Origin: Nitrososphaeria archaeon
GTDB lineage: Archaea; Thermoproteota; Nitrososphaeria; Geothermarchaeales; JDFR-13
Assembly (NCBI GenBank): GCA_027078545.1
Contig: JALWXN010000004.1
Location: 960,001-1,024,000 of the forward strand
Length of the DNA stretch: 64,000 bases
Reading direction: 5' to 3'
The translations under genes were made by a program, and so were the position numbers. Positions 462 to 9,442 of this stretch are shown in pieces (within the stretch, counting starts at the first letter, position 1; each line of letters starts with the position of its first letter). The notes beneath the pieces are model-generated. The model was given only the letters and a program-made list of their open reading frames with translations. It was not told where the DNA came from and ran no database searches.

Positions 462-1607
462 TTGCTGAGGATAACGAGGAACAAGAACCTCAGGGTAATG
501 GCTATCTTCTACCTCGTAATGGGCCTAGTCATGGGATTCGCAGCCCCCCTAATACCCAGCCTAGTCATAGATGTGGGGCTCACCTTCACGGAGCTAGGCG
601 GGGCCTCCTCACTCGCCGCACTCCTAGCCGGGCTCGGCCTCCCAGTCCTCGGATACCTGGGGGACAAGTATGGTAAGAAGAAGATGCTCATCCTTGCCAC
701 GGGGATAAGGATCTCCGCACTAGCCATCTTCGCCGCGACGATGGATAGGGAGCTTATACTACTGGCCTACATGCTCAACGAGCTGGGCTTCATACTATAC
801 CTCCCATTCGCCCGGGCAGTCGTCAGCGAGGCCGCTGGAAAGGAGGAGATGGGTAGGGCCTACGGAGAGCTCATAACCATTGTGAGCTTCACCGAGGTTG
901 TGGCACCACTCATCTCCGGCCAAATATACAGGTTTGTACAGGACTACAACGCCATGTTCCTACCACTATTCCTAGCCAGCGTGGGGGCTACACCCATCCT
1001 CCTCCTACTAGACGAGGTGAAGGCCGAGAGGCCCATACACCCGAGGGAGATACTGAGGCTATCCAGGATGGAGAGGAGGGTCTATATACCGGCGATACTC
1101 GAGGCAGTTGCATGGAGGGTATGGATCTTCCTACTATACACGGCTCCTAAGGACAGGCTAGGGATAGGCCCCGACTTCATAGGGATAGCCTATACAGCCC
1201 AGAGCGGGGCGTGGTTCCTCACCCAGTACGTCGCTGGCCACCTAACGGATAGGGTTGGCGCCAAGAAGATGTATATAGTCTCAGACTCACTCATGATACC
1301 GATGGCGCTACTCTACATCTTCTACATGTCTGAGGCCACCGTACTTATCAACGCCGCCCTATTCGGCCTAAGCATCTCACTATGGATACCCGCCTTCAAT
1401 AGGGTCGTCTTCGAGGCATCCACACAGGAGACAAGGGCACTGACATACTCCAAGGTGGACAGCTTCCGATACCTGGCGAGTACACCGGCAGCCCAAATAG
1501 GGGGTATGATGTATGAAGGGCTGGACCCGGCATCGCCCTTCATACTTGGTATCGCCCTGGTGGCTATAGATATATACCTAGAGTATAGGTTATTCCCCGA
1601 TGTATAG
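462..1607 (+). CDS. MFS transporter
   Basis: About 12 TM segments; motif A GYLGDKYGKK and a second copy GHLTDRVGAK. Confidence 0.85.
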   Translation: MLRITRNKNLRVMAIFYLVMGLVMGFAAPLIPSLVIDVGLTFTELGGASSLAALLAGLGLPVLGYLGDKYGKKKMLILATGIRISALAIFAATMDRELILLAYMLNELGFILYLPFARAVVSEAAGKEEMGRAYGELITIVSFTEVVAPLISGQIYRFVQDYNAMFLPLFLASVGATPILLLLDEVKAERPIHPREILRLSRMERRVYIPAILEAVAWRVWIFLLYTAPKDRLGIGPDFIGIAYTAQSGAWFLTQYVAGHLTDRVGAKKMYIVSDSLMIPMALLYIFYMSEATVLINAALFGLSISLWIPAFNRVVFEASTQETRALTYSKVDSFRYLASTPAAQIGGMMYEGLDPASPFILGIALVAIDIYLEYRLFPDV

Positions 1608-1621
1608 CCAATTATTAAGGG

Positions 1622-2851
1622 ATGATGGGGAGAGACCCGATAGACGAGATCAGGGGAACCTATGGAGAGGAGCTGGGGGATAGGAGGATCATACTAGTCG
1701 TCACAGGGAGCATCTCCGCCTACAAGGCTCCGGACATAGCTAGGGAGCTGATTAGACATGGTGCCGAGGTCTACATCGTCGCGAGCCAGGACGCCCTGAG
1801 ATTCGCCACTAGGGATACCCTTGCATGGAGCGTGGGTGGTAGATTGATTACCGAGATGTCCTACCTAGCAGAGCATATATACCTGCTTAGGGATGCAGAC
1901 CTAGTCCTCGTGGCTCCTGCAACGGCCAACACGGTGGCTAAGGCGGCATACGGCGTAGCGGATACACCAGCGACACTGGCCATACACTCTGCACTGGGGT
2001 ATGGGAAGAAGGTGTTGATAGCCCCCGTGATGCATCTAAACATGGCTGAGAACCCCCTCTATAAAGAGGCTGTGGAGAGGCTTAGGAAGATGGGAGTAAT
2101 ATTCATAGACCCACTGGTCGAGGAGGAGAAGGCTAAGCTACCACCCCTCAGGGATATCAAGATGGAGGTCTTCAAGTCCCTATACCCGGAGATACTCTCA
2201 GGTAGGAAGGTGGTGGTCACTGCTGGACCCACCATAGAGTATATCGACCCAGTCAGGATAATCACGAATAAGAGTAGTGGCAAGATGGGTGTCTACATAG
2301 CTGAGGAGGCCTACCTAATGGGGGCTGAGGTCACCCTTATACACGGCCCGATAAGGGTCGAGCCATATAGAAAGCTGGAAAGGATACCTGTCGAGACCAC
2401 CGAGGAGATGCTGGATGCAACAATGGAGGCCCTCGAGGGGGCCGACATATTCATAAGCGCAGCTGCACCAGTAGACTATAGGCCGGCCCTCCAGTGGGAG
2501 GAGAAGATAGATACCCGTAGCACAGGTGGACTGGACCTAGAGCTCGTCCTAACACCCAAGATCGTGGCCGAGGCTAAGAAGAGGTATCCCGATCTATACA
2601 TCGTGAGCTTCAAGGCCCTCTACAACGTGGGTGACGAGGAGCTAGTAGCTGCAGCGGCCGAGCATGCCAGGAGATACAGATTCAACCTGACGGTGGCTAA
2701 CGACGTAGCCCGTGAAGGTACAGGGTTCCAGCACGAGACAAACGAGGTCTTCATAGTCGATAGGGATGGCAGGCTGGTGAAGAGGCTTAGGGGGCATAAG
2801 AGGACCTTGGCCAGGGAGCTACTCCAGATCATAGCGGGAGAGCTTGGATAG
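1622..2851 (+). CDS. coaBC: Bifunctional phosphopantothenoylcysteine decarboxylase / phosphopantothenate-cysteine ligase
   Basis: VTGSISAYK, APATANT, VTAGPTIEYIDPVRIITNKSSGKMG. Confidence 0.95.
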   Translation: MMGRDPIDEIRGTYGEELGDRRIILVVTGSISAYKAPDIARELIRHGAEVYIVASQDALRFATRDTLAWSVGGRLITEMSYLAEHIYLLRDADLVLVAPATANTVAKAAYGVADTPATLAIHSALGYGKKVLIAPVMHLNMAENPLYKEAVERLRKMGVIFIDPLVEEEKAKLPPLRDIKMEVFKSLYPEILSGRKVVVTAGPTIEYIDPVRIITNKSSGKMGVYIAEEAYLMGAEVTLIHGPIRVEPYRKLERIPVETTEEMLDATMEALEGADIFISAAAPVDYRPALQWEEKIDTRSTGGLDLELVLTPKIVAEAKKRYPDLYIVSFKALYNVGDEELVAAAAEHARRYRFNLTVANDVAREGTGFQHETNEVFIVDRDGRLVKRLRGHKRTLARELLQIIAGELG

Positions 2852-3568
2852 CCTATCCATTATACGCCTCAACACCGCTGCGAGGACTGCTCCATTATCA
2901 TACCTGGTCAGTATCTCCCGGGCCTCCTCCCTAGTCATCCCCGTCATCTCCCTAGTAAGTATGGGGAAGACCCTCACAAGGTTATCCACAATTGTTATGT
3001 CCGAGTTCCTAGCCGTCCTACTCAGGGGGTTCAGATCGACCGATATAACCCTCTTCCCAAGCCTCCTAAGCCCCTCCGGCATATCCCCATCCTCAATCAT
3101 AAGCATAACAGTGTCAGCGGAGTAGATCCCCATGCTTGAGACGAGGCGCCTCCTACTCGACACTGTGGGTATCTCCACATCATGGTCGGTATATACCGGT
3201 ATAGAGAGCCCCCTGAACAGCCTAGCTATCGCCTCGACCCTCTCCCTAGAGTAGTGGAAGAGGTTTATCTCGATCGGGATCCCGAACCTCTCGGCGAAGC
3301 CCGCTATCTCCTCATGGGCAAGGGCCGCCGCATTACCATTAACGGCTATAACCGGCCTCTTAGAGAGTATGAGTAGGGCTGCTGCAGCCCTATAGGCTGG
3401 TAATGCCTCCTCTGGTGTCTCCTCACCTAGGATATAGTCGAAGCACTCCCCCCTGCCATGGGCGATGAGGCCCTGGGGGACGACGACATCCCCAAGCATA
3501 CTAACCAGTCGTTCACGTATGACCAGGCTCTTGTAGCGTGGGTGGCTAGTGGGGATATCAGTCATCAA
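2819..3568 (-). CDS. pps: Archaeal 4-phosphopantoate--beta-alanine ligase (phosphopantothenate synthetase)
   Basis: IPTSHPRYKSL, GLIAHGRGECFDYILGE, VDLNPLSRTA, TIVDN. Confidence 0.93.
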   Translation of the reverse strand: MMTDIPTSHPRYKSLVIRERLVSMLGDVVVPQGLIAHGRGECFDYILGEETPEEALPAYRAAAALLILSKRPVIAVNGNAAALAHEEIAGFAERFGIPIEINLFHYSRERVEAIARLFRGLSIPVYTDHDVEIPTVSSRRRLVSSMGIYSADTVMLMIEDGDMPEGLRRLGKRVISVDLNPLSRTARNSDITIVDNLVRVFPILTREMTGMTREEAREILTRYDNGAVLAAVLRRIMDRLSKLSRYDLE

Positions 3569-4406
3569 TTATCCTTAATCCACACCTCGATATTTTAAGA
3601 ACCTCTGTATACCCCATACCGGAAAGATTATCAGCCACCTCGGGGCCGAGGCCCTTGTCAACATAGACCAGGACGATATTCTTCTTCCTATGGAAACCTA
3701 TGAGGGAGCCCCTCCTCATATAGATCCTCAGCCTACCCACCAACTCCTCATAGAGATCCCTATCCATAAGCCCCGTCATCAATGAGAATCTCTGACTAGC
3801 CTCAACAAACCTCTCTAGACCCGGGTCCTCGAGGAAGTATCTATGTATCTCAGGGCCCACAGCCGAGACCTTCTCACCAACCCTCCGGAGCATCTCAGGA
3901 GTGGTCTCCGACCCAGTCTCGAGGGCCACTACGTCGGGATCACCGTCCACCCTGACCGACTCTACAACAGCCTCTCCAGGCCCACCTGGGAAACGTCTAA
4001 CCTCGAGCCCACCCCTTATAATGGCTACCACGTCTCCATAGCCAGTCCGGTTTAGAACCTCCGCATTGTGGACAGCCCTACCTGCCTCCTCAACTGTATG
4101 GGCACCAGCTAGTAGGAGGCCAGCCATCGAGAGGCCAGCGCTCATGCCATAGCCAATGCCTAGGAGTGGGCGTGAATAGGCCTCTATCGCGATTGGTTCG
4201 AGACCGAGGTAGGAGAAGCTGTCCAGATATGTCTTGAAGACTACTCTCCCAGAGCCACTGAAGTATACCCCTGGGCCGCCCTTTCCCATCCCGACCCTTA
4301 TAGGGCTCAGATTCACACCTGCGCCTACACTACCAGTCGTCTGGGGATCATGCCCCTCAACGACGTACCAATACCCAGTTACATGTCTAGGAACCTCTAT
4401 GATCAT
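3558..4406 (-). CDS. pok: Pantoate kinase (GHMP family)
   Basis: VPRHVTGYW, TGSVGAG, GIGYGMSAG, AEVLNRTGYGDV; overlaps pps. Confidence 0.88.
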   Translation of the reverse strand: MIIEVPRHVTGYWYVVEGHDPQTTGSVGAGVNLSPIRVGMGKGGPGVYFSGSGRVVFKTYLDSFSYLGLEPIAIEAYSRPLLGIGYGMSAGLSMAGLLLAGAHTVEEAGRAVHNAEVLNRTGYGDVVAIIRGGLEVRRFPGGPGEAVVESVRVDGDPDVVALETGSETTPEMLRRVGEKVSAVGPEIHRYFLEDPGLERFVEASQRFSLMTGLMDRDLYEELVGRLRIYMRRGSLIGFHRKKNIVLVYVDKGLGPEVADNLSGMGYTEVLKISRCGLRIIDD

Positions 4407-4451
4407 GCCTAGAAAGAATATGGTGGATATCTAGGAGGTATAAAGAGGAGA

Positions 4452-5615
4452 TTAGTGGGTGGGCGACCTCACTAGTAGGCCGTTCTCCTCGAGCCACCTC
4501 ACCATGCCCTGGTAGGCCAGTATCCTGGATATAGACTTCCCACCCTTCGGCCCAGGCTTCTTCATGTAGAAGGCGTTGACCTCGTATATCGTACCGGTGT
4601 AGCCAGCGTCCAGCGCCAGCCTACCCAGCCTAGCAAGGTCGACCATGTAACCAGCCAGTGCCGGGCTATCATTGATCCTCATGTTAACATAGATACTGTC
4701 CCTAACACCGTTGAAACTCTTATACTCTATGTGTATACTGACGAACTTCTTGTCGCCGAGGGGCTCCAGGTAGCCAGTGGGCTTGATATAGTGTGGCGCG
4801 TCGTAGCCCAGGATATCCTCCACGATACTGCTCTTCGTCTTCTCCTTCATCAGGTTCTTATCCGGATCTGTGAGAGCGTAGAAGTCTAGGTTACCCCCTA
4901 TATTGAACTGTACCACGAACTCAACACGCCTATTCCTCTCACTGAGATGCTCCAGGACATCGGCTGTGAAGGGCGTCGCACCAGTAGCTCCGTCGTCACC
5001 CAGTATCAGTCCACCGGCCTCCCTATACATCTTCACGTAGAGGTCGTCGTTGGCCAGTGGGGTGGGTATCAGGTTTACGAAGGCGACTGGGCTATGCCTC
5101 CTACTATACTCTGCAGCCACGTAGGCGTAGAACTGGCCAGCCGATACCCTCCCCTCAGCCAGCCTCTCCTCCAAGACCTCTATAGACCCGATCTCATCGG
5201 CATACTCGGTAGTTATCACGTTGATGATGACGTCGGGCTCCAGCTCCCTCCACTGGTCGATCAAGGTCTCCGCCGCCTCTAGGAGGCTCATCCTATAGTC
5301 TAGACCCCTGGACCTGATGCCCAGCCTATCCAGGTTCCCAAGGTGGACACCCTCCAGTACCCTGAGACTCCTGAGACTCTCCGGTATAGGCACTACATCG
5401 CCTATCTGCCTCTTAGCCACCTCGTAGAGCGTCTTGCCAACCTTGGACTCGTCGACGTCATAGGCAGCCACTACCTCTACCTCGGATATACTCTTCTCAA
5501 GCTTACCTGCAAGGGGTACTCCATAAGGCTCTATCTCACCAGCCTTAATCCTCTCAAGCCCCACAGCGAAGTGTGAGGCCGCCATACCCATGCCGAGCAG
5601 TATAACCCTCACCAT
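4452..5615 (-). CDS. ino1: myo-inositol-1-phosphate synthase
   Basis: N-terminal Rossmann fold, GDDGATGATP, QFNIGGNLDF, RINDSPALAG. Confidence 0.92.
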   Translation of the reverse strand: MVRVILLGMGMAASHFAVGLERIKAGEIEPYGVPLAGKLEKSISEVEVVAAYDVDESKVGKTLYEVAKRQIGDVVPIPESLRSLRVLEGVHLGNLDRLGIRSRGLDYRMSLLEAAETLIDQWRELEPDVIINVITTEYADEIGSIEVLEERLAEGRVSAGQFYAYVAAEYSRRHSPVAFVNLIPTPLANDDLYVKMYREAGGLILGDDGATGATPFTADVLEHLSERNRRVEFVVQFNIGGNLDFYALTDPDKNLMKEKTKSSIVEDILGYDAPHYIKPTGYLEPLGDKKFVSIHIEYKSFNGVRDSIYVNMRINDSPALAGYMVDLARLGRLALDAGYTGTIYEVNAFYMKKPGPKGGKSISRILAYQGMVRWLEENGLLVRSPTH

Positions 5616-5701
5616 ATCTAATCACCTCCTTAGGGTGTGATGGAGGATTAGTGAATAGGTGTGGAGCTAGTAGCCCCGAGGATCCACAGAGACCTCCATC
5701 C
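5616..5701 (-). promoter_or_regulatory. Structured 5' leader of ino1 (candidate cis-regulatory RNA)
   Basis: TATA-like TTTATAT at 5735-5729; GAUGGAGG/CCUCCAUC helix; CUAAUCCUCC complementary to SD region GGAGGUGAUUAG. Confidence 0.5.
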
Positions 5702-5749
5702 AAAAAATATTGTGATGTATGGTGGAGGATATAAATATGATTGGGAGCG

Positions 5750-7162
5750 TTACCAGCTCTCCACGTATGTCTTGGCCTCTGCAACGACCTTAGCGGCGTC
5801 GCTCAACGCCTCTAGATGCGTCTCAATATCCTCCATCGTATGCTGTACACTCATCGTCCACATCTCCTCAGGCCCCGTGGCCATGGGTATAACACCCCTG
5901 TTGAGCATGGCGTAGTAGTAGGGGTACCACAGCTCGAATGGGAGGTTCAGGAGGTCTCTAAAGCTGTGTACAGGCTCTGGGGAGAATAGGAATGCCCCTG
6001 AGACTCCAAAGGTTTCGACCACGACATCGACGCCATTCTCATCGAAGATCTTCTCATACCCCCTGCTGAGCTCCTCGTTAAGCCTTATCATCTCACGGTA
6101 TGCATCGTCGGTAAGGATCTCCGTCAACGTGGTGTATAGCGACCTGAGGCTGAATGGATTGGCGTTATAGGTACCTGCGTGTAGGACGCCCTGCTCCCTA
6201 ATACTCTCGCTCGGCCCTATAAGAGACATTATCTCGTCGATCCCCCCGATCATGCTTATCACCGCCCCTCCACCTATCGCCTTTGCCGCGGTTATTATGT
6301 CCGGCTCTACACCGAAGATCTGGGCAGCCGTAGTCCTCCCAGCCCTGAAGGCCGTCTTCACCTCGTCGAAGATGAGTACGACGTCATACTCGTCGGCTAT
6401 CCTCCTAAGCCTCTGTAGATAGTCGTTCTCAGGCTTGATAATACCGGCGTTCATCATCACAGGCTCAACAATGATAGCCGCTACGTCGTCCCCCTCCTCC
6501 TCCAGGATGTCTATGAGGGGCTCAGTATCGTTGAAGGGAACCACCCTGACCAGCTCCTCCATCTTATCGGGTACGCCGAGGGTCTCCAGGACGCTGACAG
6601 GCATCTTCCTAGGCCCTGCTAGCCCCCTGAATGGCCATATGCTGAATAGGACATTGTCATAGGTGCCGTGGTAGCTCCCCTCAACCTTTATGATGATGTC
6701 CCTACCCGTGAACGCCCTCGCCAGCCTGATAGCGAACATCACGGCCTCGCTACCACTGTTGCTGAAGCGGAACATGTCGACATCCAGGAGGTCTGTGATC
6801 AGATCGGTGATCTCGTCTAGGAGGTAGTAAGGGAATGTGTAGAGGATCCCCTCCTCTATCTGCCTATGGAGAGCCTCGTTAAGCTTCGGGTGGCTATGCC
6901 CGACTAGGAGGGTTCCATACCCCATGTTGAAGTCGAGGTACTCATTTCCATCTACGTCCCATATCCTACTACCCCTGGCCCTGGTGAAGTATATCGGGTA
7001 CGGCGGGTAGTACCTCTGGTTACTGTTCACACCGTAGGGGATGTACTCCGAGACCTTCTCGAAGACCTCCCTGCTCCTCCTCGTCCTGTCTAGGTAACGC
7101 CTAACCTCCTTCAGGGTCGAGGGTCCATAGTCCTCAAAATCGGCTAGATAAGCCTCATACAT
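5750..7162 (-). CDS. Class III PLP aminotransferase, glutamate-1-semialdehyde aminomutase-like
   Basis: DVDGNEYLDF, FSNSGSEA, EGSYHG, LIFDEVKT, AAKAIGGG, HAGTYNANP. Confidence 0.85.
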   Translation of the reverse strand: MYEAYLADFEDYGPSTLKEVRRYLDRTRRSREVFEKVSEYIPYGVNSNQRYYPPYPIYFTRARGSRIWDVDGNEYLDFNMGYGTLLVGHSHPKLNEALHRQIEEGILYTFPYYLLDEITDLITDLLDVDMFRFSNSGSEAVMFAIRLARAFTGRDIIIKVEGSYHGTYDNVLFSIWPFRGLAGPRKMPVSVLETLGVPDKMEELVRVVPFNDTEPLIDILEEEGDDVAAIIVEPVMMNAGIIKPENDYLQRLRRIADEYDVVLIFDEVKTAFRAGRTTAAQIFGVEPDIITAAKAIGGGAVISMIGGIDEIMSLIGPSESIREQGVLHAGTYNANPFSLRSLYTTLTEILTDDAYREMIRLNEELSRGYEKIFDENGVDVVVETFGVSGAFLFSPEPVHSFRDLLNLPFELWYPYYYAMLNRGVIPMATGPEEMWTMSVQHTMEDIETHLEALSDAAKVVAEAKTYVESW

Positions 7163-7250
7163 AAGGAATATACACCCCAGTCCATAGAAGGAGTGTAAAG
7201 CCGCCTCTCAATGGAGTGTCATCCGGCTCCACACTCAAACCTCCGTATGT
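7163..7250 (-). promoter_or_regulatory. Structured 5' leader of the GSA-AM-like gene (candidate cis-regulatory RNA)
   Basis: TATA TTTTATATA at 7281-7273; 13-bp core stem GAGUGUGGAGCCG/CGGCUUUACACUC with G.U pairs that form only on the minus strand. Confidence 0.55.
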
Positions 7251-7298
7251 ATTAGGTTTCTACTGGCCGAGGTATATAAAATATAGTGTATATCCAGG

Positions 7299-7574
7299 CT
7301 ACCCACCTGCAGGCGGGTGTAGAGCCACTACATCGCCCTCAGACAGCACCGTCTCCACCCCGGATAGGAGGTCTATATCACGACCATTAACAGTTATCCT
7401 GTGGTAGGGGGCTGGAGACCCATCCCTGATCACTAGGCCATCCAGTCCGGGATAGATCTCCAGGAGCCTGTTGAGGAGATCCGCCACTGTGGACCCCTCA
7501 GGGAGGTCCACCAATGTCTCCATCACCCCAGTGGCTAGGTAGGAGTATCCGTAGAGCCTGACTACTATCCTCAT
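7299..7574 (-). CDS. moaD: MoaD/ThiS/SAMP ubiquitin-like sulfur carrier
   Basis: 91 aa beta-grasp pattern, VNGRDI, ends HPPAGG; directly after aor. Confidence 0.9.
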   Translation of the reverse strand: MRIVVRLYGYSYLATGVMETLVDLPEGSTVADLLNRLLEIYPGLDGLVIRDGSPAPYHRITVNGRDIDLLSGVETVLSEGDVVALHPPAGG

Positions 7575-7591
7575 AAATAGGTGGGGAGGGG

Positions 7592-9442
7592 TTATGCCGG
7601 GTACTCCAGCTTCCTAGCCTCCTTGGTGAGGCGTAGGCTCCTTAGCTTACCCTTCCTAGGCACCCCGTTCTTATCCCATCCCCTGAGCCTATAGTAGTCA
7701 TCCAGCATCTTCTCGAACTTCTCCCGGCCAAGTATCTTCCCAGCTGGTGGGCCGCTCTTGAGTGGCTCGTTCAGTATCCTGTAGGGTACGTAGTCATCCC
7801 TCCTCGTGAAGCCCTCCCTAACGTTGAAGAGCCTTATCAGGTTCCATATCCTCTCTCCCCTCCAGCGGAGATCCTCGACACTCATGTCCCAGCCAGTGGC
7901 CAGCTTCAGATACTTAGCCATCTCCTCATAGTTGATCGCTATGAAGTCGCACCAGACCATGCTCCACTTGATCGTGTTGAGGTCCTGGAGCCTGATAACC
8001 ACCTCAGCCTTACCCTCAGGTGTGAATGGGTCTAGCTCCCCGAATGCCTCCTCAGCTATGCTCCAGGCCCTCAGGTGGCAGGCACCCCTATCAGCGGTTG
8101 CGTATGCCAGGGCCATGGAGACGCTTCCACGTGGGTCATATGCCGGATACTCCAGGCCCTTAGTCTCGATGGCGAATTTATAGGCGTCTCCACCCACATA
8201 TGCGGCTATGCCCTTCACACCCTCAGCCATGATGTCTCCGAAGCCTATCCTATGGGCCATCATCTTGATCAGCTCATACTCAGCCTCGGGATCACCGAAC
8301 CTAGCCTCTACACCGTTGAGATCCTTCTTGGTTAGGTAGCCCTTCTCATAGAGCTCCATAACATAGCCCACTATGTTACCTGCGGAGATACTGTCCATAC
8401 CCATGTCGTCTAGGAGGGCGTTGAGGGATACGATGGCCTTGAAGTCGCCTATACCCGCCGCGCCGCCGACCATAGCGATAGTCTCATACTCAGGCCCATC
8501 GATGTGGAACTCGCCCCACCTTGGATCCTTAACCTTAACCAGATTCCTACATGCTATTGAGCATCTGTAGCATGCCGCCTTACTAGTCCTGAACCTCTTG
8601 AGGACATCAGCAGATATTTCCTCCCACTCCTCGAAGACGCCGTCCTGGAAGTTCCTAGTCGGGAATACCCCTACATTGTTGCTCCACTCTACGATAGTTG
8701 GCGTACCACCGTTCTTGGCCCATGCATAGTCCTCGCTGAATATCTTCTCCTTGATATACCACCTGTTATACTCGTTGAAGCCGTCTGGATCCGCCAGCTC
8801 AAACCTCGGGTTCTTGGGGTCAGCCGAGACGACGACCGCCTTCAGGTTCTTACTACCCATTACGGCGCCTACTCCGCCCCTAGCATGTATGTGATGCTTA
8901 TCCACAACCACTCCCGCTATCTTAACTAGGTTCTCCCCAGCCGGGCCTATCGCCGCTACCTTGGCATCCTTGTCACCTACCTCCTCTCTTAGAGCCTCCT
9001 CCGTGGCGAAGACTCCCCAGCCCCAGTATTTAGAGGCGTCTCGGAAGTGGAACTTCCCGTCGTGGTCTATATAGACATATGTGGGCTTCTCAGCCCTACC
9101 CATGAATACTATGGCGTCGAAGCCGGCTATCTTCATATAGCTGGTGAAGAAGCCTCCGCCGTTGCTATCGTTGAATGTCCCCGTGGCTGGAGACTTGGTG
9201 GCGATCACACCCCTCGCAGAGGCGGGGGCACCAGTCCCTGTTAGGGGGCCGACGGCGAATATAAGGATGTTTGCTGGGGAGAGTGGGTCTATCCTTGGTG
9301 GCAACATGTCGTAGAGCAGCTTAGCGGCCAGCCCCTTACCCCCTATATACTCCTTGAGGAGGCTCTCCCTAGGCTTCCTGATCTTCACCTTCCTCCGTGT
9401 AAGGTCTACATAGGCGATCCTATTGCCATAGCCATATGCCAT
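7592..9442 (-). CDS. aor: Tungsten-containing aldehyde:ferredoxin oxidoreductase family protein
   Basis: YIGGKGLAA, KSPATG, IGPAGENLV, GGVGAVMGSKNLKA, CxxCxxxC (CYRCSIAC), GPEYET, RGACH; start set at MAYGY. Confidence 0.93.
   Translation of the reverse strand: MAYGYGNRIAYVDLTRRKVKIRKPRESLLKEYIGGKGLAAKLLYDMLPPRIDPLSPANILIFAVGPLTGTGAPASARGVIATKSPATGTFNDSNGGGFFTSYMKIAGFDAIVFMGRAEKPTYVYIDHDGKFHFRDASKYWGWGVFATEEALREEVGDKDAKVAAIGPAGENLVKIAGVVVDKHHIHARGGVGAVMGSKNLKAVVVSADPKNPRFELADPDGFNEYNRWYIKEKIFSEDYAWAKNGGTPTIVEWSNNVGVFPTRNFQDGVFEEWEEISADVLKRFRTSKAACYRCSIACRNLVKVKDPRWGEFHIDGPEYETIAMVGGAAGIGDFKAIVSLNALLDDMGMDSISAGNIVGYVMELYEKGYLTKKDLNGVEARFGDPEAEYELIKMMAHRIGFGDIMAEGVKGIAAYVGGDAYKFAIETKGLEYPAYDPRGSVSMALAYATADRGACHLRAWSIAEEAFGELDPFTPEGKAEVVIRLQDLNTIKWSMVWCDFIAINYEEMAKYLKLATGWDMSVEDLRWRGERIWNLIRLFNVREGFTRRDDYVPYRILNEPLKSGPPAGKILGREKFEKMLDDYYRLRGWDKNGVPRKGKLRSLRLTKEARKLEYPA

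Follow-up and report, generated by a model that had tools for sequence, protein, structure and literature searches.

A candidate regulatory upstream open reading frame with a conserved acidic start in an aminotransferase leader of the Candidatus Geothermarchaeum family

In Escherichia coli, the residues EPDP directly after the first methionine of the leader peptide MgtL abort translation within the sequence MEPDPT, and the Mg2+-dependent frequency of this event sets the expression of mgtA (10.1101/2021.02.02.429294). N-terminal sequences rich in Asp, Glu and Pro abort translation generally, at a stage when the exit tunnel is still empty (10.1101/2021.02.02.429294; PMC11282234), early acidic residues act as regulatory pauses (PMC11282234), and the destabilisation by acidic runs is also seen on eukaryotic ribosomes, where it depends on Mg2+ (10.1101/2022.01.27.477990). 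In Salmonella, the Asp and Glu codons of the 8-codon open reading frame MgtQ destabilise the ribosome and control translation initiation of mgtB (PMC8092293). The effect of such runs is tuned by Mg2+ and by the stability of the ribosome. Regulation by upstream open reading frames (uORFs) is well worked out in bacteria and eukaryotes, whereas in archaea it is essentially uncharacterised, small ORFs in 5' untranslated regions having been catalogued there by ribosome profiling (PMC10117724). In Haloferax volcanii, such small ORFs are reminiscent of uORFs or leader peptides (PMC10117724). That catalogue covers one haloarchaeon and comes without a conserved motif or mechanism, whereas the leader described here has a predicted ORF and an N-terminal motif that recur family-wide.

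This leader lies in a 64,000-nucleotide stretch of a Nitrososphaeria archaeon genome of 1.24 Mb and 52% G+C (contig JALWXN010000004.1, positions 960,001 to 1,024,000; the whole stretch is called the window hereafter), and all its features are on the minus strand. It precedes a gene for a class-III, GSA-aminomutase-like aminotransferase of 470 amino acids (5750-7162; Pfam PF00202, E 8.6e-65). The enzyme scores below every NCBIfam cut-off (GntE 381.6 vs. 525, hemL 348.4 vs. 527.3); judged by the profiles, it resembles GSA aminomutase and GntE. The 12 orthologues first collected all align from residue 1 in tblastn comparisons, so that ATG 7162 is the true start, and a first-pass annotation of this DNA had both this start and its Shine-Dalgarno (SD) sequence right. 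The latter, GGGGUGUA, is found at 7178-7171 and includes the motif GGGGTG (7178-7173, SD2 in the following). Upstream of the aminotransferase are genes for an aldehyde:ferredoxin oxidoreductase and a MoaD/SAMP-like protein, the stop codon of the moaD-like gene being located at 7301-7299, and downstream follows ino1, the gene for myo-inositol-1-phosphate synthase. The leader has its own promoter with the TATA box TTTTATATA at 7281-7273. Archaeal TATA-to-start spacing would put the start of transcription near 7252-7248, and the leader is long, at about 88 nt.

Within this leader I found a uORF of 25 codons (7232-7155), which starts with GTG at 7232-7230 and ends with the stop codon TGA at 7157-7155, overlapping the main ATG within AUGUAUGA. 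It is preceded by the SD motif GGAGGT at 7244-7239 (GGAGG at 7244-7240; SD1 in the following), which all six genus sequences share unchanged; a TTG in the same frame, at 7238, abuts SD1 and is an unlikely start. SD2 is located inside the uORF, where it encodes Gly-Val, and its G.GGTG block is kept in the alignment of the genus. Orthologous leaders were collected from 13 genomes of the Candidatus Geothermarchaeum family and from metagenome contigs, and removal of duplicates left 16 distinct leaders; all genomes are metagenome-assembled and related, and counts across the 16 are not fully independent. All 16 share one layout, in which a TATA box is followed after about 25 nt by an SD-like motif (GGAGGT, GAGGTG or GGGGTG) and, 5-10 nt further on, by the GTG, TTG or ATG start of an ORF of 12-37 codons, the TATA-like box being located about 40-46 nt 5' of the uORF start in every case. 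Relative to the main ATG, the uORFs end anywhere from -40 to +19: the stop overlaps the main start in the genus of the window, precedes it by 4-5 nt in two genera and by 21-40 nt in the remainder, and in one leader the overlap amounts to 19 nt. As this distance varies from overlap to 40 nt upstream, strict termination-reinitiation cannot apply everywhere.

All 16 leaders have kept the frame open. In shuffled leaders, the chance of an ORF this long is 0.12-0.38 for each sequence; multiplied over some 11 diverged lineages, this makes, by my own arithmetic, a joint chance of about 1e-7. Neither the aminotransferase paralogues of the same genomes nor the homologues in other archaea have such an ORF; their leaders are short. 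Genome-wide, a scan for SD-led uORFs returned only about 32 genes, many of which are genuine small proteins, and no matching acidic N-terminus was found near other gene starts, one ORF on contig C1 set aside. This ORF (genome G000, contig C1) is SD-led, has 35 codons with an acidic first half and ends 18 nt before a gene of 541 codons (65176-66801, plus strand); it could be a second acidic uORF or a genuine small protein. A programmed frameshift joining uORF and enzyme was considered and rejected, as the frames and stop positions vary between genera.

The window peptide opens with MEPDDTP, and five of the six residues after the methionine are Asp, Glu or Pro. This acidic, proline-containing N-terminus (codons 2-7, E P D D T P, 7229-7212) is conserved, as seen from the counts of acidic residues and from the phase of GA dinucleotides. 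An acidic run, defined as at least three Asp or Glu in residues 2-8, is present in 13 of the 16 leaders, often with Pro or Ser/Thr after it, and shuffles of each leader put its chance at about 0.005 per sequence (range 0.002-0.012). In the window's own genome, only 4.4% of the long ORFs of a crude gene set begin so acidic. The remaining three leaders (L114, L121 and L148) have kept the SD motif and the short ORF without the acidic run, and hence the motif is not indispensable. Within the nine codons that follow the start, GA dinucleotides are distributed over the codon phases in a ratio of 51:2:4, with 51 at codon positions 1-2, and the wobble base of these GA codons is T, G, C or A in 21, 15, 11 and 4 cases, all four being used. 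This phase with its free wobble marks a constraint on the encoded residues and not on an RNA motif.

As 13 of 16 leaders have 3-5 acidic codons immediately behind the start, and an aminotransferase lies downstream, the uORF could also be read as a sensor of charged tRNA, in which the Asp and Glu codons tie progress along the uORF to the supply of Asp- and Glu-tRNA and so tune an enzyme that makes or consumes these amino acids. This would be the logic of a classical leader peptide, applied to translation. Aminotransferases commonly use glutamate and 2-oxoglutarate. However, the substrate of this enzyme is left unassigned by the profiles, Asp and Glu codons are freely mixed, which suits an effect of charge better than the sensing of a single tRNA, and neither conserved alternative helices nor oligo-T terminators are present that would relay a stall. 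I consider this sensor distinctly improbable. Oligo-T tracts are absent from 15 of the 16 leaders, which makes transcription attenuation unlikely and any control translational, and sets the family apart from attenuators of the trp and his type, as does the lack of conserved helices. Translational control is likely, and the leader as such is very likely regulatory.

The selection acting on the leader was mapped in two independent pairs of close relatives, with the third codon positions of the main gene as the neutral yardstick (24.5% for the window and its closest relative G002, 27% for L118 and L119). Between the window and G002, eight substitutions are found in positions -130 to -1: one in -130 to -56, which comprises the promoter, SD1, the start and the first five codons, seven in -55 to -20, and none in -19 to -1. 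Between L118 and L119, there is no change in -130 to -52, seven in -51 to -26 and again none in -25 to -1. Both pairs give the same map, with the promoter, SD1, the acidic codons and the SD2/AUG region fixed and the middle of the ORF drifting neutrally. In this drifting stretch replacements outnumber synonymous changes 5:1 in both pairs by my own count, so that the body of the peptide is unconstrained and the frame nonetheless open. The promoter region including the sequence from TATA box to SD1 is near-invariant, with 0-1 change in 75-79 nt vs. about 25% at synonymous sites (window 7292-7218, minus strand; L118/L119, -130 to -52), which suggests a transcription-factor site besides the basal promoter.

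A trans-acting small protein, such as an acidic peptide directed at the conserved basic stretch at the N-terminus of the aminotransferase, is another reading. An N-terminal extension rich in Arg and Lys is conserved in the consensus of the enzyme family, and in each orthologue the uORF is predicted to share its transcript with the enzyme gene and to be closely coupled to it. In two genera (L120 and L122), the uORFs end in GLRIF followed by the stop codon, 25-28 nt before the main ATG, and differ there by synonymous changes only, plus TAG vs. TAA. This C-terminus, which also counts in favour of a small protein, shows, as far as the two sequences go, that some lineages constrain more than the N-terminus. 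Arrest peptides have a conserved C-terminus at the stop codon. However, beyond the first 6-10 residues the uORF peptides have no conserved sequence, length (12-37 amino acids) or character, being hydrophobic, polar or basic; they drift neutrally between close relatives, whereas the enzyme orthologues are 63-97% identical, and the six uORF peptides searched against Pfam gave no match. A small protein acting in trans is therefore unlikely in my judgement.

The first-pass annotation had seen a different device in the same leader, i.e. a ligand-responsive RNA switch in which the loop sequence ACACUC of a hairpin captures GAGUGU and so frees UACACUCC to mask the main SD. The hairpin (7249-7183), the loop ACACUC (7219-7214), UACACUCC (7197-7190), the SD and the TATA box, 24 nt 5' of the hairpin, are all present on the minus strand where that annotation had placed them. 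The stems pair CAUA (7249-7246) with UAUG (7186-7183), GGAG (7244-7241) with CUUC (7190-7187), and 7236-7224 with 7203-7191 over 13 bp, enclosing a loop of 20 nt (7223-7204), and the three G.U pairs said to be in the stem were confirmed. The asymmetry between strands is real as well: the minus-strand RNA folds with a minimum free energy of -29.5 kcal/mol (z -2.34), which 3 of 200 shuffles equal, vs. -18.5 kcal/mol (z -1.0) for the plus strand. In this single sequence, the hairpin is moderately better than chance. The alternative conformer is feasible too, at -17.2 vs. -25.7 kcal/mol at 37 C in the window sequence, and is the predicted fold of the 3' part once 7247-7218 is held single-stranded; with the 5' arm held open in this way, SD2 is predicted to be occluded. 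The feasibility of both conformers in the window sequence and the presence of the heptamer ACACUCC twice within about 25 nt speak for the switch. In terms of the uORF, the 5' arm of the hairpin consists of SD1, the spacer and codons 1-3, the loop of codons 4-10 and the 3' arm of codons 10-17. The GGAG of the lower stem is itself the SD of a conserved uORF, which that annotation had missed.

Among the relatives, the hairpin is found solely in the window and in G002, which is 87% identical in DNA; the other four members of the genus fold differently. Seven of the eight substitutions in the G002 leader affect the loop or the 3' arm or lie immediately beyond that arm. A single loop change converts ACACUC to ACCCUC, by which the second ACACUC is lost; in the arms, a G.U and a G-C pair have each become G.G, breaking two pairs, and another G.U has become G-C. 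No compensatory changes accompany the two broken pairs, and the 5' arm is invariant. The 3' arm (7203-7183) and the loop lie in the drifting stretch, where the leader changes about as fast as neutral sites. The covariation that would be expected of a switch is missing from the alignment of homologues. Across the six genus sequences, 70.6% of the hairpin cells pair vs. 44-50% with slid partners, and 9 of 500 shuffles score as high; this signal, the third point in favour of a switch, is modest and comes from pyrimidine-rich, CUCC-type stretches opposite the invariant SD1. In the same six sequences, the masking helix between UACACUCC and the SD is at shuffle level (411 of 500 shuffles reach it) and the RNAalifold consensus amounts to only -2.7 kcal/mol. 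Masking of SD2 was also tested in all 16 leaders, with the whole leader and with its 3' part alone, which represents the situation behind a ribosome, at 37, 60 and 65 C, and SD2 was not paired above shuffled controls (mean z +0.3, +0.1 and 0.0). For SD1, pairing slightly exceeds that in shuffles of the 16 leaders (mean z -0.6), which is not convincing.

Rfam 15 gave no match at gathering scores in the whole window, and nothing relevant at E<=10 in positions 6900-7600. Folding bore out the hairpin and its alternative conformer in the window sequence and failed to bear out the masking of SD2 across the family, and the anti-anti-SD / anti-SD / SD logic of a riboswitch is not supported by the comparison of relatives. 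As a conserved element, the RNA switch is largely refuted, and I hold a ligand-responsive switch to be very improbable. The likeness to translational riboswitches and other SD-sequestering switches lies in the long leader and, in the window alone, in mutually exclusive helices of an anti-SD-like CUCC with the two SDs; a conserved aptamer, covariation and an Rfam match are all lacking, and the arms drift neutrally. Judging from the alignments, the hairpin is not a conserved RNA element; it is a lineage-specific overlay, outside the conserved device, that possibly modulates access to SD1. A lesson of method is that a coding leader can, as a by-product, give a single sequence a convincing 'switch' hairpin.

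The hairpin could alternatively belong to an independent small RNA, such as an H/ACA or C/D guide, or be the terminator of the aor-moaD transcript. It is stable and its loop has a GAUGA...UGAG motif. However, GAUGA is simply the pair of Asp codons, the stem has no pseudouridylation pocket but only bulges of 1 nt and 4 nt on one side, 7182-7163 contains no ACA, and, apart from the lack of an Rfam match, the genome search found the leader with its hairpin in single copy, conserved no further than the closest relative. As for a terminator, the leader's own TATA box precedes the hairpin, which is not followed by a T-run. I give these two options practically no credence.

Aminotransferase and ino1 are adjacent in the genus of the window and in one other genus. 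In a complete relative (L233; G008:C1:900000-912000, 956-8099), the genes behind the aminotransferase, in the same orientation, are those for a TrkA-N/C protein, a CLC channel, ino1 and an H+-pyrophosphatase. This neighbourhood suggests ion or osmotic stress and may hint at the signal and at the role of the enzyme. The ino1 leader (window 5616-5736, minus strand) also opens with GGAGGT and GTG, with a mini-ORF of 6 codons that is confined to the window genome and G002. The ino1 leaders of other family members (loci L220-L232) are of similar length and have a near-perfect hairpin near the 5' end, and the leader of the inositol-phosphate synthase gene may be a structured one. An RNA motif common to the ino1 and aminotransferase leaders was rejected, the shared 5' part being the SD and GTG.

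In this study I slightly favour the view that the leader is a translated regulatory uORF, the first cistron of the aminotransferase mRNA, and not a ligand-sensing RNA. The comparison of leaders documents its conserved anatomy, its coding signature and the pattern of selection upon it. From these I infer that the uORF is translated, that it is coupled to the main ORF and that it works by ribosome destabilisation, with the sign of the effect inferred likewise. Transcription would begin about 25 nt past the TATA box, and ribosomes would bind GGAGG of SD1 and initiate at GTG 7232, so that the N-terminus M-E-P-D-D-T-P, rich in Asp, Glu and Pro, would be synthesised first. This acidic N-terminus is the probable control point: passage through the uORF would be conditional on ribosome-stabilising conditions, and the fraction of ribosomes passing would set the arrivals at the main start. 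Continuing ribosomes would cross SD2 and terminate at the UGA that overlaps the main AUG (AUGUAUGA), from where ribosomes or subunits could re-initiate on the aminotransferase ORF by termination-reinitiation coupling. In the window genome only, a ribosome on the first codons might free the 3' arm to pair with SD2 and so sharpen the response. In the predicted folds, this pairing is the sole element of the switch model that could still operate, and its trigger would be the ribosome and not a metabolite. Candidate structures that link drop-off to downstream expression are present in the window sequence only and are not conserved; the overlap of stop and start is the alternative route of transmission.

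The locus resembles MgtL, from the mgtA mRNA of E. coli and Salmonella, in that a short leader ORF rich in Asp, Glu and Pro after the methionine (MEPDPT vs. MEPDDTP in the window) lies upstream of the controlled gene, and the Mg2+-tuned drop-off of ribosomes that underlies MgtL control is proposed likewise for the uORF here. However, MgtL is bacterial and acts on Rho-dependent transcription termination via defined alternative RNA structures, whereas the present leaders have neither a conserved alternative structure nor a terminator; its target is a Mg2+ transporter in a bacterium and not an aminotransferase in an archaeon, and the ORF here is longer, at 22-37 codons, and reaches the main start. 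The likeness of the two peptides is too short for homology, and convergence or coincidence seems more likely. MgtQ is alike as a small ORF with Asp and Glu codons just 5' of a gene, and translational control of the next gene is proposed in both cases, but MgtQ has 8 codons, is located between operon genes and frees the ribosome binding site from an inhibitory stem-loop, whereas here no family-wide masking of that site is seen.

The acidic residues in the present motif number 3 or 4, which makes it weaker than the runs used experimentally. Taken by itself, the nascent-chain destabilisation step is a tentative proposal and more probably wrong than right. A literature search on nascent-chain ribosome destabilisation and archaea found no archaeal case. 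It is more doubtful still that this is the first conserved archaeal leader peptide to act in that way, with an MgtL-like start that ties translation of the aminotransferase to Mg2+/K+, polyamines or temperature.

The family-wide conservation and the clear selection map make the leader a concrete candidate for an archaeal case in which a nascent peptide controls translation. It offers a test case for whether the destabilisation by acidic runs, so far described in bacteria and eukaryotes, operates on archaeal ribosomes as well. If the proposal is true, Thermoproteota-related archaea would have arrived by convergence at the principle of the bacterial MgtL and MgtQ.
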